From a virus (lineage: Duplodnaviria > Heunggongvirae > Uroviricota > Caudoviricetes), in the IMG/VR virus record IMGVR_UViG_2537562173_000009: a stretch of DNA of 4,664 nt, one strand, 5' to 3'. Both the position numbers and the translations under genes were made by a program. Below, piece after piece: positions 1 through 4,664 of the stretch (positions within the stretch are counted from its first letter, which is position 1; every line of letters starts with the position of its first letter). The notes under the pieces were generated by a model. It searched no databases. It was not told the DNA's origin and saw only the letters and a program-made list of their open reading frames with translations.

Positions 1-209
1 GGGCTGTGGCTGATTAAAACGGAGCTGCTGGAAACGCAGACCGTGGACTTCAGCGTGGGTGCAGAAGGGCTTCGCCATGTACCGGGCGATGTCATTGAAA
101 TCTGTGATGATGACTATGCGGGGATCAGCATCGGCGGGCGCGTGCTGGCGGTGAACAGCAAAAATGCGGGCGGTGAACAACCAGACGCGGACACTGACGC
201 TCGACCGTG
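1..209 (+). CDS. J: gpJ-like fragment A (frame 1, 5'-partial). Homology ends near 163; the tail '[15 protein letters not shown]' is out-of-frame read-through.
   Basis: Frame 1 is open from base 1 and reads 'GLWLIKTELLETQTVDFSVGAEGLRHVPGDVIEICDDDYAGISIGGRVLAVNSK', then nonsense to the TGA at 207-209. Confidence 0.6.
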
Positions 210-907
210 AAATCACGCTGCCATCCTCCGGCACCACGCTGATAAGCCTGGCTGACGGACAGGGGAATCCGGTCAGCGTGGAGGTCCAGTCCGTCACCGA
301 CGGCGTGAAGGTAAAAGTGAGCCGTGTTCCTGACGGCGTTGCAGAATACAGCGTGTGGGGGCTGAAGTTGCCAACGTTGCGCCAGCGCCTGTTCCGCTGT
401 GTGAGTATCCGTGAGAACGATGACGGCACGTATGCCATCACTGCCGTGCAGCATGTACCGGAAAAAGAGGCCATCGTGGATAACGGGGCGCACTTTGACG
501 GCGACCAGAGCGGCACGGTGAATGGTGTCACGCCGCCAGCGGTGCAGCACCTGACTGCCGAAGTCACCGCAGACAGCGGGGAATATCAGGTGCTGGCGCG
601 CTGGGACACGCCGAAGGTGGTGAAGGGGGTGAGCTTTATGCTTCGCCTGACCGTGGCAGCGGATGACGGCAGTGAGCGGCTGGTCAGCACGGCCCGGACG
701 ACGGAAACCACATACCGCTTCAGGCAACTGGCGCTGGGGAACTACAGGCTGACAGTCCGGGCGGTAAATGCGTGGGGGCAGCAGGGCGATCCGGCATCGG
801 TATCGTTCCGGATTGCCGCACCGGCAGCGCCGTCGCAGATTGAGCTGACACCGGGGTATTTTCAGATAACCGCCACGCCGTGTGGAGGCTGTTGGCCAGC
901 CGAGTGA
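164..907 (+). CDS. J: gpJ-like fragment B (frame 2). J-like sequence starts at about 170; the ATG at 164 is probably fortuitous.
   Basis: This is the 247-aa ORF from the track. From '[21 protein letters not shown]' to '[13 protein letters not shown]' it is collinear with the middle of lambda J. The last 8 codons ('CGGCWPAE*') are out-of-frame relative to the continuing J sequence. Confidence 0.6.
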
Positions 908-1964
908 TGATGCATCCGGCTATCTGAATTTTTTCAAAGGAGAGATAGGGAAAACCCATCTGGCTCAGGAGTTGTGGACGCAGATTGATAACGGTCAGCT
1001 TGCGACTGACCTGGCTGAAATCAGGACGTCAATTACGGGTGTCAGCAATGAAATCACGCAGACCGTCAATAAGAAACTGGAAGACCAGAGTGCAGCGATC
1101 CAGCAGATACAGAAGGTTCAGGTTGATACAAATAATAACCTGAACAGCATGTGGGCTGTGAAGCTGCAGCAGATGCAGGACGGACGCCTTTATATCGCGG
1201 GTATTGGTGCCGGTGTTGAGAATACTCCTGACGGTATGCAGAGTCAGGTGCTGCTGGCGGCGGACAGGATTGCGATGATTAATCCTGCGAATGGCAACAC
1301 AAAGCCGATGTTTGTTGGGCAGGGCGATCAGATATTCATGAACGAAGTGTTCCTGAAATATCTGACGGCTCCCACCATTACCAGCGGTGGCAATCCCCCA
1401 ACGTTTTCACTGACACCTGATGGTCGACTTTCTGCGAAAAATGCGGATATCAGCGGTAACGTGAACGCGAACTCCGGGACGCTCAACAACGTCACGATTA
1501 ATCAGAACTGTCGGATTCTGGGAAAACTGTCAGCTAACCAGATTGAAGGTGATATTGTCAAAACGGTGGGAAAAGCCTTTCCGAGAAATGGCAGTTATGC
1601 CAGCGGTACAATAACGGTCACTGTGTACGATGACCAGGCTTTTGACCGTCAGATAGTAGTCCCCCCCGTTCTGTTTCGTGGGGGTAAGCATGAAAACTTC
1701 AACAGCAACAACCAACAGTCATACTGGTATTCAACCTGTAAGCTGCAGGTACTGAAGAACGGACAGGAAATCTTTCAGCAACCCGCGACGGATGTCAGCA
1801 GGGTATTTTCATCAGTCATTGATATGCCTGCCGGACACGGCCATGTCACCCTGACTTTCAATGTTTCTTCATATGGTGCTAATAACTGGACGCCAACGAC
1901 CAGTATCAGCGACCTTCTTGTTGTTGTGATGAAGAAATCTACAGCCGGTATCAGTATCAGTTGA
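882..1964 (+). CDS. J: gpJ-like fragment C (frame 3), the C-terminal receptor-recognition part of J.
   Basis: This is the 360-aa ORF (GTG at 882). It contains conserved J motifs ('MWAVK', '[31 protein letters not shown]', '[46 protein letters not shown]', 'FDRQIVV', '[15 protein letters not shown]', 'AGISIS*'). The stop is TGA at 1962-1964. The last ~150 aa diverge from lambda J. Confidence 0.65.
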
Positions 1965-1983
1965 ATTTTATAACCCAGATACG

Positions 1984-2010
1984 GGCGCCAGAAATGGCGC
2001 CTTTTTTATT
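1984..2010 (+). terminator. Rho-independent terminator downstream of J.
   Basis: There is a perfect 7-bp stem, GGCGCCA (1984-1990) pairing with TGGCGCC (1995-2001), around a GAAA tetraloop (1991-1994). It is followed immediately by TTTTTTATT (2002-2010). Confidence 0.7.
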
Positions 2011-2022
2011 TGTGGAGTGAAT

Positions 2023-4083
2023 ATGGCAGTACAGATTTCAGGCGTGCTGAAAGACGGTGCAGGAAAACCGATACAGAACTGCACCATTCAGCTCAAAGCA
2101 AAACGTAACAGCACCACGGTTGTGGTGAACACGGTGGCCTCAGAAAATCCGGATGAAGCCGGACGTTACAGCATGGATGTCGAGTATGGCCAGTACAGCG
2201 TTATCCTGCTGGTTGAAGGTTTTCCGCCTTCACATGCCGGGGCCATCACCGTGTATGAGGATTCTAAGCCGGGGACATTGAATGATTTTCTGGGCGCTGC
2301 AACAGAAGATGATGTTCGTCCGGAGGCACTGTATCGTTTTGAAAAGATGGTGGAAGAGGTGGCACGCAACGCTGAAGCCGCCTCTCAGAGCGCAGCGGCA
2401 GCAAAGAAATCAGAAACAGCAGCGGCATCGTCCAGGAATGCGGCGAAAACATCAGAGACGAATGCAGGTAACAGCGCGAAAGCGGCAGCTTCTTCAAAAA
2501 CAGCCGCACAAAACGCAGCAACAGCGGCAGAACGTTCAGAGACAAATGCCCGTGCGTCAGAAGAAGCCTCCGCAGACAGTGAAGAGGCTTCCCGCCGTAA
2601 TGCAGAGTCAGCCGCTGAAAATGCCGGAGTCGCCACCACAAAAGCGCGGGAGGCCGCAGCAGACGCAACAAAGGCCGGGCAGAAAAAGGATGAGGCTCTG
2701 TCGGCAGCGACACGGGCTGAAAAGGCGGCAGACCGCGCAGAAGTCGCAGCGGAAGTGACTGCAGAGCCCTATGCGAATATAGTGCCGCCGCTGCCTGATG
2801 TGTGGATACCGTTTAACGATTCACTGGATATGATTGCGGGTTTTTCTCCGGGCTATAAAAAAATAGCTATTGGTGACGATGTGGTTCAGGTCGCCAGTGA
2901 TAAACAGGTTAATTTCAGTCGCGCATCAACGGCAACATATATCAACAAATCTGGCGAACTGAAAACGGCGGAAATTAATGAGCCGCGATTTGAGTGTGAT
3001 GGCCTGCTTATTGAGGGACAAAGAACGAACTACATGCTCAATTCGGAAAGTCCAGCCAGCTGGGGGAAGTCATCAAACATGGATGTGCCCGAAACCGGGA
3101 CAGATAGTTTTGGTTTTACTTATGGAAAGTTTGTCTGCAACGATTCTCTGGTTGGGCAAACTTCGGCTATTAATATGGCATCAATTGCTGCAACAAAGTC
3201 AGTTGATGTCTCAGGCGATAACAAGTACGTGACAACCTCATGCCGTTTTAAAACAGAACGACAGGTAAGGTTACGTATACGGTTTGATAAGTATGATGGT
3301 AGTGCAACAACTTTTCTTGGCGATGCGTACATTGATACGCAAACGCTTGAAATTAATATGACAGGTGGGGCTGCCGGCAGAATTACGGCACGAGTCAGGA
3401 AGGATAAGACCACAGGCTGGATTTTTGCAGAGGCAACGATTCAGGCAATTGATGGTGAGTTAAAAATAGGCTCTCAGATACAGTATTCTCCTGAGCGGGG
3501 TGGGGCAACAGTATCTGGTGACTATATTTATCTTGCCACCCCACAAGTAGAGAATGGGCCGTGTGTATCATCATTTATTATTTCAGGAGGCAGCGCAACG
3601 ACAAGAGCCAGTGATTTGGTTAGTATCCCCACCAGAAATAATCTTTATAAGTTACCATTTACTTTTTTACTTGAGATTCATAAAAACTGGGATATTGCAC
3701 CAAACGCCGCACCCCGCGTGTGGGATATAGCAGCAGCCAATACCGGGCAATCAGCAATTGCAGCAATCAACAGAGGTAGTGGTAAGTTATATATGAGTCT
3801 GTCAAACCCTTCAGGCTTGTATGTTAATAGCGCAGCGACAGATGTATTTGCAGAGAAAACCACATTTGGATGTATTGCAAAAGCTGATGGTCACTTTCAT
3901 GTGGTGACAAATGGTAAAGCGGTTAATGAAGTTTATTGTGAATATAATGGTGTGACCGCTGATAAAAATATCCGATTTGGAGGGCAGACGAATACTGGAG
4001 AACGACATCTGTTTGGCCATATTCGCAATTTCCGCATATGGCATAAAGAATTAAATGACAGGCAATTAAAAGAGGTCGTATGA
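2023..4083 (+). CDS. stf: Side tail fibre protein (lambda Stf family N-terminus, Ala/Ser-rich shaft, divergent C-terminal receptor-binding domain).
   Basis: It is a long ORF, open from GTG at 2017. The ATG at 2023 is the preferred start: it is preceded by GGAG (2014-2017) with a 5-nt spacer and gives 'MAVQISGVLKDGAGKPIQNCTIQLKAKRNSTTVVVNTVASENPDEAGRYSMDVEYGQYSVILLVEGFPPSHAGAITVYEDSKPGTLNDFL', which is near-identical in pattern to the lambda Stf N-terminus as I recall it. The low-complexity Ala/Ser/Thr/Glu shaft is typical of side tail fibres. The stop is TGA at 4081-4083. Confidence 0.9.
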   Translation: MAVQISGVLKDGAGKPIQNCTIQLKAKRNSTTVVVNTVASENPDEAGRYSMDVEYGQYSVILLVEGFPPSHAGAITVYEDSKPGTLNDFLGAATEDDVRPEALYRFEKMVEEVARNAEAASQSAAAAKKSETAAASSRNAAKTSETNAGNSAKAAASSKTAAQNAATAAERSETNARASEEASADSEEASRRNAESAAENAGVATTKAREAAADATKAGQKKDEALSAATRAEKAADRAEVAAEVTAEPYANIVPPLPDVWIPFNDSLDMIAGFSPGYKKIAIGDDVVQVASDKQVNFSRASTATYINKSGELKTAEINEPRFECDGLLIEGQRTNYMLNSESPASWGKSSNMDVPETGTDSFGFTYGKFVCNDSLVGQTSAINMASIAATKSVDVSGDNKYVTTSCRFKTERQVRLRIRFDKYDGSATTFLGDAYIDTQTLEINMTGGAAGRITARVRKDKTTGWIFAEATIQAIDGELKIGSQIQYSPERGGATVSGDYIYLATPQVENGPCVSSFIISGGSATTRASDLVSIPTRNNLYKLPFTFLLEIHKNWDIAPNAAPRVWDIAAANTGQSAIAAINRGSGKLYMSLSNPSGLYVNSAATDVFAEKTTFGCIAKADGHFHVVTNGKAVNEVYCEYNGVTADKNIRFGGQTNTGERHLFGHIRNFRIWHKELNDRQLKEVV
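2365..2760 (+). repeat. Low-complexity Ala/Ser/Glu/Thr-rich repetitive coding segment (fibre shaft) inside stf.
   Basis: The translation is 'RNAEAASQSAAAAKKSETAAASSRNAAKTSETNAGNSAKAAASSKTAAQNAATAAERSETNARASEEASADSEEASRRNAESAAENAGVATTKAREAAADATKAGQKKDEALSAATRAEKAADRAEVAAEV'. Short motifs recur (SETNA twice, AA(K/E)(T/R)SETNA), and the DNA is rich in gcagc/gcggc repeats. This generates spurious ORFs on both strands. Confidence 0.8.
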
Positions 4084-4358
4084 AAGATTTAACTTTGAAG
4101 TTTCATGACAAACTGCAGTTTAAGGCCTTCCTGTCATCTCTTGACTGGGAGGAGGATGAAGACCTCCAGAATAAACTGTTAGTCGATGAAATTGGTTTCA
4201 CCTACACAGAAACAGGGGTAACAGAAGAGGGAGAACCTGTCTGTGTCCGGAATGACGGTTATTTTGTCAACATTCGCATTCTTGATGACTTGTTTGATGT
4301 TTCTGTATTCTCTGATTATGTCGTGGAGCTGGAAACACCGCTTCGGGAATGGAGCTGA
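4080..4358 (+). CDS. Hypothetical small acidic protein (92 aa), translationally coupled to stf. Possibly a fibre-tip accessory or assembly factor; it is not recognisably Tfa.
   Basis: Its ATG (4080-4082) overlaps the stf stop TGA (4081-4083) as ATGA. An SD-like AAAGAGG lies at 4069-4075. The ORF is very Asp/Glu-rich ('DWEEDEDLQNKLLVDEIGFTYTETGVTEEGEPV...') with no hydrophobic segment. It shares the low GC (~35-42% by hand count) of the stf 3' domain. Confidence 0.65.
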   Translation: MKDLTLKFHDKLQFKAFLSSLDWEEDEDLQNKLLVDEIGFTYTETGVTEEGEPVCVRNDGYFVNIRILDDLFDVSVFSDYVVELETPLREWS

Positions 4359-4370
4359 AAGGAGGAAATA

Positions 4371-4664
4371 ATGGATATAAGCCCCTTACTTCATGCGCTT
4401 TGTGCTGTGGCTGCGCAGATACTGGTTGGTCTTTTTACCGGAAACTGGGCTTACGGAGCGATAGCCGGTTGTACGTTCTTCATTGCGCGTGAACATACCC
4501 AGGCAGAATATCGCTGGATTGAAATGTTCGGGCATGGCAAGCGAATGAATATGCCGTGGTGGGGCGGTTTTGATCCGCGAGCTTGGGATGTGGCAAGCCT
4601 GATGGATTTTGCTGTGCCGGTGGTGGCGTGTCTGCTGGTCTGGCTGTTGGTTAATCGTGGGTGA
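4371..4664 (+). CDS. Hypothetical small membrane protein (97 aa, two predicted transmembrane helices). Candidate moron / accessory gene.
   Basis: There is a strong SD, AAAGGAGG (4358-4365), with a 5-nt spacer to the ATG at 4371. The stop is TGA at 4662-4664. Hydrophobic stretches are 'LLHALCAVAAQILVGLFTGNWAYGAIAGCTFFIA' and 'LMDFAVPVVACLLVWLLV', flanking a Trp-rich loop 'EHTQAEYRWIEMFGHGKRMNMPWWGGFDPRAWD'. GC returns to about 53-60%. Confidence 0.7.
   Translation: MDISPLLHALCAVAAQILVGLFTGNWAYGAIAGCTFFIAREHTQAEYRWIEMFGHGKRMNMPWWGGFDPRAWDVASLMDFAVPVVACLLVWLLVNRG

Follow-up and report, generated by a model that had tools for sequence, protein, structure and literature searches.

A gene J remnant spread over three reading frames in a phage-21-type lambdoid prophage

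The stretch of viral DNA analysed here (4,664 nt, hereafter referred to as the window) begins with a region in which the blocks of a tail-tip gene are read in three different frames, one after the other. The question raised by this locus is whether the gene has been inactivated, works in separate pieces, or is represented incorrectly in the sequence. We found that positions 1–1964 correspond to the 3′ 60% of the tail-tip gene J of a phage-21-type lambdoid prophage, for which the record gives the genus Jouyvirus. The J product is a trimeric protein that serves as the tail-tip hub, the central fibre and the receptor-binding protein. As judged from these 4.6 kb, the element as a whole probably belongs to the widespread phage-21-type prophages of the kind that carries sitABCD.

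A tblastn comparison of the phage 21 J protein (1160 aa) with the window gave three colinear HSPs, one per frame: J residues 448–501 at nt 1–162 in frame 1 (96% identity), residues 494–733 at nt 161–880 in frame 2 (98% identity, E 6e-161) and residues 801–1160 at nt 882–1961 in frame 3 (99.7% identity, E 0). Residues 734–800 were absent from the HSPs. This similarity is far above chance, and it bears out the original prediction that the J blocks follow each other in frames 1, 2 and 3. The segments and the stops that close the first two of them are as follows.

1–157, + strand: J segment A, frame 1; J codons 448–498, the end of the hub block (Pfam Phage-tail_3), open at the left window edge
169–880, + strand: J segment B, frame 2; J codons ~496–733, comprising the linker, FNIII-1 (Ig_J) and the first ~18 residues of FNIII-2
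881–1964, + strand: J segment C, frame 3; J codons 800/801–1160, comprising the end of FNIII-2, the alpha-helical shaft, the straight fibre and the receptor-binding domain (RBD)
208–210, + strand: premature TGA closing frame 1, from the stop list and the translation
905–907, + strand: premature TGA closing frame 2, preceded by an 8-aa out-of-frame tail (CGGCWPAE)

The DNA of segment A is 100% identical to phage 21 and CFT073 up to nt 146/157, and its translated residues 2–50 match Phage-tail_3. Segment B matches Ig_J (1.9e-43), and its translation is that of phage 21 J save for one codon, L versus P. Segment C contains Phage_Tail_Tip (3.5e-32; central straight fibre) and Ig_GpJ_C (2.7e-38; receptor-binding domain), is colinear with the lambda gpJ structure 8iyk_J, and ends at the natural J stop (1962–1964, frame 3). 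Intact J has the Pfam map Phage-tail_3 330–496, Ig_J 610–714, Ig_J_second 716–818, Phage_Tail_Tip 872–1000 and Ig_GpJ_C 1038–1160. Four domains of this gpJ set, Phage-tail_3, Ig_J, Phage_Tail_Tip and Ig_GpJ_C, were above the cut-offs in the window fragments, whereas Ig_J_second was not found in them by Pfam, having been lost to the deletion described below.

Two premature stops had been predicted. The one at 905–907 is where it was expected, with a second frame-2 TGA directly after it (908–910); the other had been placed at 207–209, one nucleotide off the actual TGA. The predicted frame-1 product consists of J residues 1–498 and a 17-aa out-of-frame tail. It had also been assumed that a functional J is one ORF of about 1130 codons, which is right as to the single ORF but not as to the length, the intact homologue having 1160 codons (lambda J, 1132). 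The window copy is a J pseudogene or remnant, without a single continuous ORF of ~1130–1160 codons. As had been proposed, the gene as written is spread over three frames with premature stops. Copies of this prophage family normally have J intact.

Nucleotide alignment with phage 21 and CFT073 located the following changes in the J region.

147–168, + strand: 22-bp insertion relative to all relatives
880–881, + strand: junction of an exact 200-bp deletion
1005, + strand: private C to A substitution, P842T
1031, + strand: private C to A substitution, synonymous (TCC to TCA, Ser850)

The insertion is composed of an 11-bp direct duplication (GGCGGTGAACA) and an 11-bp filler (GCAAAAATGCG); because 11 bp are duplicated, it can equally be placed as far along as 158–179. 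It shifts the frame by +1 and creates an ATG at 164–166. The deletion takes out J codons 734–799 and 2 nt of codon 800, which is about two thirds of FNIII-2 (Ig_J_second), and also shifts the frame by +1. The two shifts add up to a net +2, so the lesions do not compensate for each other; +22 and −200 leave a net −178 bp, which is not divisible by 3, and both lesions are thus of the frame-breaking kind that defines a pseudogene. The original prediction had assumed small frameshifts; what we found instead was a complex 22-bp insertion and a blunt 200-bp deletion. No microhomology was present in the junction alignment at 880/881, and a blunt deletion of this kind is atypical of spontaneous RecA-independent deletions in E. 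coli.

No template for the filler emerged from the window or from the complete phage 21 genome, where only chance 10–11-mers matched it. The insertion was also considered as a diverged 22-bp tandem duplication, in which 17/22 positions match with one gap; this is unconvincing for a recent event. No IS-end or restriction-site signatures were recognised at the junctions. Neither lesion is a sequencing error of the homopolymer type, and the 11-bp duplication on either side of the filler has a biological appearance.

The module J-stf-orf92-orf97 differs from that of phage 21 by 4 substitutions and 2 indels over 4842 aligned positions, with 0 differences after nt 1031. When both indels are undone, the window becomes 4842 bp long and matches four natural E. 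coli assemblies (L004–L007) except at the two SNPs, and positions 1032–4664 are base for base the same as those of relatives with intact J. All four private changes fall within 885 bp (nt 147–1031), with the adjoining 3.6 kb unchanged; under uniform scatter, such clustering has a probability of ~0.002–0.004. It is conceivable, albeit highly improbable, that the 22-bp insertion is the excision footprint of a mobile element making 11-bp target duplications and that, with the deletion and the two C to A changes, it marks a localised error-prone break-repair episode specifically at J, a host- or element-driven disarming of a sitABCD-carrying prophage in which the rest was spared.

Downstream of J, the window contains the following features.

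1983–2012, + strand: intrinsic terminator between J and stf, from a consensus scan (8-bp G+C-rich stem, 4-nt loop, T-run)
2023–4083, + strand: side tail fibre gene stf, 686 aa, intact, 100% identical to phage 21 stf
4080–4358, + strand: orf92, 92 aa, overlapping the stf stop (ATGA); hypothetical in phage 21, PHROG 1361, unknown function
4371–4664, + strand: orf97, 97 aa, putative membrane protein with two TM segments; annotated in phage 21, PHROG 1443, unknown function

The terminator that separates J from stf is annotated at the same place in phage 21. Lambda-type J genes stand at the end of the tail operon, behind I and ahead of a terminator and stf; the window shows the second half of this order, the upstream genes lying outside it. 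The stf product belongs to PHROG 1419 (tail protein) and matches Pfam phage_tail_N (9.8e-69), with a weaker C-terminal match to Laminin_G_3 (5.1e-05; 23.9 bits, under the 27.6-bit cut-off); the exact protein occurs in 11,873 blocks of the assembly collection. No Pfam match was obtained for orf92. An Rfam search of the window and a search of it for tandem repeats returned nothing, and the promoter and terminator scan gave shuffle-level counts in the window, the known J-stf terminator excepted. In relatives, the convergent sitD lies 92 bp beyond the point at which the window ends; the svsR sRNA described in NC-SV, a related prophage, is located at cI and hence outside the window. The original prediction had allowed for some other reason behind the persistence of stf and the small ORFs. 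No such reason is needed, given that positions 1032–4664 do not differ from intact relatives: the downstream genes are intact because the J lesions are too recent for neutral decay of their neighbours.

Could J still be functional, as separate hub and fibre/RBD pieces in the manner of T5 pb3/pb4/pb5, or by ribosomal frameshifting or re-initiation? The ATG that the insertion creates at 164 is exactly in frame with the downstream J sequence (MRAVNNQ...), a GTG is present at 882 at the deletion junction, and other siphophages have the hub, the fibre and the receptor-binding protein as separate genes (PMC10721106). However, FNIII-2 is reduced to a stump and none of the pieces has a complete domain set; GTG 882 is not preceded by a Shine-Dalgarno-like sequence, and ATG 164 has only a weak GGxGG 11 nt before it. 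The arrangement is, in addition, unique to the window sequence. We also inspected both frame boundaries for a programmed frameshift, as in lambda G-T, and found neither an X XXY YYZ nor a prfB-like site; J is one ORF in every relative examined, with no conserved frame change that would speak for recoding. A naturally split hub/fibre/receptor-binding protein set of the T5 type would have, for each piece, its own start, a ribosome-binding site and whole domains, and the J pieces do not show this. Taken together, these observations make a working J in pieces barely credible.

We therefore favour, with a probability of roughly 0.6, the reading that J of this prophage copy was recently knocked out by two independent, non-compensating indels. 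The insertion lies at codon ~498, just past the hub domains, and the blunt 200-bp deletion takes out most of FNIII-2. Translation from the J start would end at the TGA at 208–210 and yield a hub fragment of ~515 aa, without FNIII-1/2 and without the helical shaft, central fibre and receptor-binding domain that follow. With this fragment the tail cone could not be closed nor a receptor bound, so that any particles encoded by this element alone would have no tail or would fail to adsorb. Loss of J function is suggested by analogy with the structure and genetics of lambda gpJ. It does not strictly follow that the element is not infectious, as had been proposed, because J could be provided in trans by another lambdoid prophage in the same host. 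The proposed defect of the prophage as a whole also reaches beyond J, and the window contains no head, lysis or integrase genes.

This reading takes the lesions to be present in a living genome, and we looked for them elsewhere. All four changes proved to be private: none of them occurs in the 5,426 complete E. coli genomes, the 50,697 phage records, the GTDB representatives, the JGI metagenomes or IMG/VR. In megablast searches of the 5,426 E. coli genomes, the insertion junction was not found, the best matches being two pieces that covered 92% of the query; junction-spanning searches that also covered plasmids were negative as well. Exact contig scans did not find the insertion junction in IMG/VR, GTDB representatives or JGI metagenomes. 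For the deletion junction, an 80-bp query is non-discriminating, as two-piece matches tie with a one-piece match, and we hence used a 40-bp query, which had no match in E. coli genomes or phage records; an exact 30-bp scan found nothing in viral, genome or metagenome contigs. A 68-bp query over both SNPs gave no 28-mer match in the 5,426 E. coli genomes. At the protein level, the exact 247-aa and 360-aa ORF products were not found in look-ups, and no record of the lesions came up when the frame-2 ORF or the frame-1 peptide including its new tail was used for homology searches; absence from protein sets says little here, as NCBI-annotated pseudogenes (e.g. L011) have no product there. The support from independent assemblies that the original prediction had called for was thus not obtained: none in the collections searched has either junction or either SNP.

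With no independent assembly carrying the lesions, an artefact has to be weighed: they may have arisen in sequencing, assembly, polishing or cloning, or have been put into the sequence deliberately, in which case the real J would be the common intact 1160-codon allele. The confinement of the private differences to nt 147–1031 in an otherwise identical background is consistent with this, as are their absence from every collection searched and the round 200-bp length and blunt junction of the deletion. J is, moreover, a multi-copy repeat that fragments draft assemblies (median 2 J-like places per E. coli genome, up to 14); in the protein set, J fragments that are partial or chimeric and sit on ~1-kb contigs number in the hundreds, and public assemblies include many obviously erroneous frameshifted J pieces. 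On the other hand, the usual read errors are 1–2-nt homopolymer indels and not events of 22 bp or 200 bp, and a de Bruijn mis-join requires a shared k-mer, whereas the deletion junction is without homology. An exact 11-bp flanking duplication is not expected from a random artefact either, and the variant bases match no paralogous J allele. On balance, we infer that the lesions are real, and regard an artefact as unlikely, while giving it serious weight.

If real, the lesions could still be man-made, J having been disabled on purpose or as a side effect of genome editing, for instance so that a probiotic or production strain with this prophage does not release phage. Nissle 1917 and other widely used B2 strains have the identical J allele, the lesions are grouped in one essential tail gene, and the blunt, microhomology-free junction and round deletion length would suit a design. 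Yet direct reading revealed no FRT or loxP site, no cassette and no restriction-site junction, and the mix of a 22-bp partial duplication with an out-of-frame 200-bp deletion and two stray SNPs would be rare in a designed knock-out. We found no literature on such editing, and a man-made origin, which is purely our supposition, appears quite improbable.

Under the preferred reading of recent inactivation, this copy of a common sit-carrying prophage would be unable to make a tail tip of its own; the sitABCD iron/manganese transporter would stay with the strain, with no spread by infection unless another prophage supplies J. In that case, J should be annotated as a pseudogene, and gene content alone should not earn the prophage the label 'intact'. 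If the lesions are an artefact, they are a reminder that the multi-copy J gene is a frequent site of assembly errors. The locus is an ordinary dead (or mis-sequenced) phage gene of an already known type and not a new kind of feature; either outcome leaves knowledge of lambdoid tails and of prophage decay unchanged and has little import beyond annotation.

The closest known system is phage 21 (OL657228.1), in which gene J (CPT_21_21, 'central tail fiber'), the terminator, stf, orf92 and orf97 follow in the same order as in the window. The J part of phage 21 differs from the window by a TG/CA dinucleotide, two SNPs and two indels and is otherwise identical. Phage 21 is viable, and its DNA was sequenced from virions with an intact J allele (PMC9119081); its J is one 1160-codon ORF, as against +22 bp, −200 bp and three frames in the window.

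The probable kin of the element are the sitABCD prophages of B2 ExPEC/AIEC (CFT073, Nissle 1917, ABU 83972, S88 and IHE3034, and 'Perceval' of LF82), and the 'NC-SV' prophage of NC101 occupies the same phage 21/icd attachment site; LF82 and NC101 were likened to the window by their descriptions, while the sequence comparison covered the other strains. The window stops short of sitD, the attachment site, and the immunity, lysis and other modules of such an element. Sequenced sit-prophage strains have the J allele of the window except for the indels and the two C to A changes, together with the same downstream module, so that J is intact in the sit prophages of these other strains, unlike in the window copy. 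Such prophages have been described as intact or active, and the sit operon that Perceval carries has been classed as a moron (PMC9928086, PMC12803456); Perceval produces virions (PMC9928086).

Among the 10 places shown where J lies next to an identical stf, J encodes 1160 aa in eight and 1158 aa in one, and is disrupted by IS3 in the remaining one. IS3 interrupts J in HM670 and APEC E12053, and the stf of CFT073 carries a nonsense codon. As tail-fibre genes of the same prophage have been inactivated independently elsewhere, decay of this module is an observed and ordinary event. In HM670, APEC E12053 and the chimeric remnants P0001, P0016 and P0029, J likewise has no single ORF while its neighbours persist. 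These other decayed J genes involve an IS insertion, fusions or duplications, whereas the window copy has a small complex insertion and a blunt deletion, with no mobile element left.

Lambda gpJ (1132 aa; PDB 8iyk/8k35/8xcg) is colinear with the phage-21-type J, with the same residue numbering up to 835. The tube of the lambda tail is closed by the trimer of FNIII-1/2, and LamB is bound by the central fibre, which is made up of the helical shaft, the straight fibre and the RBD (PMC11101478, PMC10721106). The two proteins share the domain order HDs, linker, FNIII-1, FNIII-2, helical shaft, straight fibre and RBD and differ in length by 28 residues. Because the shaft, fibre and RBD diverge, the receptor specificity of the phage-21-type J is presumably unlike that of lambda gpJ.

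To determine how J is laid out, we searched the window by tblastn with the intact phage 21 gpJ (1160 aa) as the query, the comparison of the three-frame translation with J that the original prediction had proposed, and recovered three colinear HSPs:

J residues 448-501: window nt 1-162, frame 1, 96% identity
J residues 494-733: window nt 161-880, frame 2, 98% identity
J residues 801-1160: window nt 882-1961, frame 3, 99.7% identity

J is thus spread consecutively over three frames, as predicted, far beyond chance. Residues 734-800 are missing from the window. The frame-2 TGA lies at 905-907 as claimed; the earliest frame-1 stop, placed at 207-209 by the prediction, is in fact the TGA at 208-210. 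Comparison with phage 21 (L001, annotated region of OL657228.1) and CFT073 (L002) puts the left edge of the window at J codon 448. The ORF list comprises the following:

ends at 1964, plus strand: long frame-3 ORF
2023-4083, plus strand: 686-codon ORF (stf)
4080-4358, plus strand: small ORF, 92 aa
4371-4664, plus strand: small ORF, 97 aa

Of 5,426 complete E. coli genomes, 4,631 carried J genes matched by window nt 1-2016 in a megablast search, as did 229 phage records. The top matches were phage 21, phage ev017 and the prophages of CFT073, Nissle 1917, ABU 83972, S88, IHE3034 and APEC O18, and in every one of them the 2016-bp query split into two pieces over 2194 bp of the record. Phage 21 and CFT073 share one gene order: H-M-L-K-I-J, a terminator, stf, the 92-aa ORF, the 97-aa ORF and a convergent sitDCBA operon. 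The stf product has a lambda-like N-terminal domain followed by an Ala-rich coiled segment and, where the lambda Stf C-terminus would be, a weak ConA-like/Laminin_G_3 lectin match below the Pfam cut-off. No tfa-type chaperone gene follows stf; the ATGA-coupled 92-aa ORF (PHROG 1361, unknown function) stands there instead, and its putative product may serve as the assembly factor. The 97-aa putative two-TM protein (PHROG 1443, function unknown) is encoded by the final late-operon ORF ahead of the convergent sitD; its stop codon is the exact window end, and sitD lies 92 bp further in relatives.

A three-way DNA alignment of the window, phage 21 and CFT073 resolved the lesions. A 22-bp insertion lies at 147-168 (placement at 158-179 is equally valid) and consists of an 11-bp direct duplication (GGCGGTGAACA) flanking an 11-bp filler (GCAAAAATGCG). 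The layout at 147-179, in which duplication, filler and repeat succeed one another in 11-bp units, resembles a scarred target-site duplication. GC comes after the first copy, matching the lambda AVNS allele at the protein level, and AC after the second, matching the phage 21 AVNN allele. A search of the window and the phage 21 genome gave no template for the filler beyond chance 10-11-mers, and no IS end was recognised. The second lesion is a deletion of exactly 200 bp at the 880/881 junction (L001 4859-5058), at which the alignment revealed no microhomology. Each indel shifts the frame by +1, so that the two do not compensate. There are also two C->A substitutions, at 1005 (P842T) and at 1031 (synonymous). 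The TG (Leu) at 735-736 agrees with CFT073, whereas phage 21 has CA (Pro); lambda also encodes Leu there. The Pro of the phage 21 laboratory stock, within FNIII-1, is the minority allele.

When both indels were undone, the resulting 4842-bp repaired window was identical at every base to four natural E. coli assemblies except for the two C->A changes. Against phage 21 it had just 4 differing positions, none of them beyond nt 1031.

We then searched for the lesions elsewhere. In the 5,426 E. coli genomes, an 83-bp query spanning the insertion gave only two-piece matches with 92% coverage, and a 68-bp query spanning both SNPs had no 28-mer match; therefore, neither C->A variant is shared. A 40-bp query across the deletion junction, which cannot seed on undeleted J, was unmatched in these genomes and in 50,697 phage records. 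Both junctions had zero exact matches in IMG/VR, GTDB species representatives and JGI metagenomes. An exact-product look-up found no record of the 247-aa and 360-aa products, and queries with the frame-2 ORF and the frame-1 peptide with its novel tail found no protein with either frameshift tail in a set of 5.8 billion clusters. Absence among proteins is weak evidence, because NCBI lists pseudogenes without a product, as illustrated by HM670 (L011, CP082772.1): its NCBI-derived gene table has no J fragments despite an IS3-interrupted J, leaving such pseudogenes invisible to protein look-ups.

The main competing reading is that the lesions are not natural. All four private changes fall inside 885 bp while the adjoining 3.6 kb is unchanged (p about 0.002-0.004 under uniform scatter), and the deletion is blunt and exactly 200 bp. 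J is moreover a multi-copy repeat at which draft assemblies break and become scrambled; partial J proteins from ~1-kb contigs number in the hundreds in the protein set, which also includes chimeras (P0001, P0016, P0029) and many frameshifted pieces (P0125, P0135, P0145, P0149) that share one alternative frame and end in ...DARP*. Among these proteins of public assemblies, P0001 has FNIII-1 duplicated internally, P0016 joins a resolvase/invertase N-terminus to J, and the P0125-type pieces carry 1-nt frameshifts. J is both a real rearrangement hotspot and an assembly/sequencing-error hotspot. However, the lesions are unlike homopolymer-type errors, a false join would need a shared k-mer and none is present, and the flanking 11-bp duplication resembles a biological signature, albeit one whose source was not found. 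We consider it rather unlikely that the lesions are artefacts absent from the living genome, and deliberate engineering very improbable.

Intact J aligns colinearly with lambda gpJ (PDB 8iyk), the residue numbers coinciding up to 835, and its Pfam domain map is as follows:

J residues 86-207: FNIII-A
J residues 330-496: Phage-tail_3 (hub)
J residues 610-714: Ig_J (FNIII-1)
J residues 716-818: Ig_J_second (FNIII-2)
J residues 872-1000: Phage_Tail_Tip
J residues 1038-1160: Ig_GpJ_C (RBD)

This map and the lambda colinearity place the insertion directly behind the hub block; codons 734-799, lost through the deletion, make up about two thirds of FNIII-2. The lambda tail cone is closed by FNIII-1 and FNIII-2, each present in three copies; beneath them, the helical shaft, the straight fibre and the RBD make up the central fibre, which engages the receptor and initiates opening (PMC11101478; PMC10721106). 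The product ending at 208-210 is predicted to comprise J 1-498 followed by 17 out-of-frame residues and would lack FNIII-1, FNIII-2, the shaft, the straight fibre and the RBD. J is needed from the outset of lambda tail assembly, and functional tails would be expected to be absent. That J still functions, as a split gene or through recoding, is close to excluded: FNIII-2 is reduced to a stump, GTG 882 has no RBS, a weak GGxGG motif alone lies 11 nt upstream of ATG 164 (itself made accidentally by the insertion), a slippery site is absent, and no relative has the arrangement.

Across the assembly collection, 11,873 blocks encode the exact stf protein; of the 10 places displayed, eight had a J of 1160 aa, one a J of 1158 aa and one an IS3-disrupted J. 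Phage 21 forms plaques, and its DNA was sequenced from purified virions (PMC9119081); Perceval, the sit-prophage of LF82, makes virions, and its sitABCD is expressed as a moron (PMC9928086). These J sizes and virions indicate that intact J is the norm and the window state a rare private derivative.

We favour, with a probability of roughly 0.6, the reading that J was genuinely inactivated in a single lineage, and very recently. Such inactivation is an ordinary event, since other strains have suffered independent breaks in this module. The IS3 insertion in HM670 and APEC E12053 is an independent J inactivation within the same prophage family; an IS3-family element of ~1.3 kb has split the same J allele there (about 4096-5309 of L011, with the insertion point equivalent to about window 1376). 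The CFT073 stf carries a nonsense mutation at codon 554 (window 3682 = L002 7860; A in the window and phage 21, T in CFT073; AAA to TAA). RefSeq splits stf there, so that this prophage has a broken side fibre and an unbroken J. The suggestion that the downstream genes were retained for another reason is unneeded: they are base-identical to those of intact relatives, and decay has therefore had no time. As E. coli genomes have a median of two J-like loci (megablast), it is conceivable that another prophage supplies J in trans. Gene, phage and phenomenon had all been described before; this particular allele is new, but it is unremarkable and may not be real.
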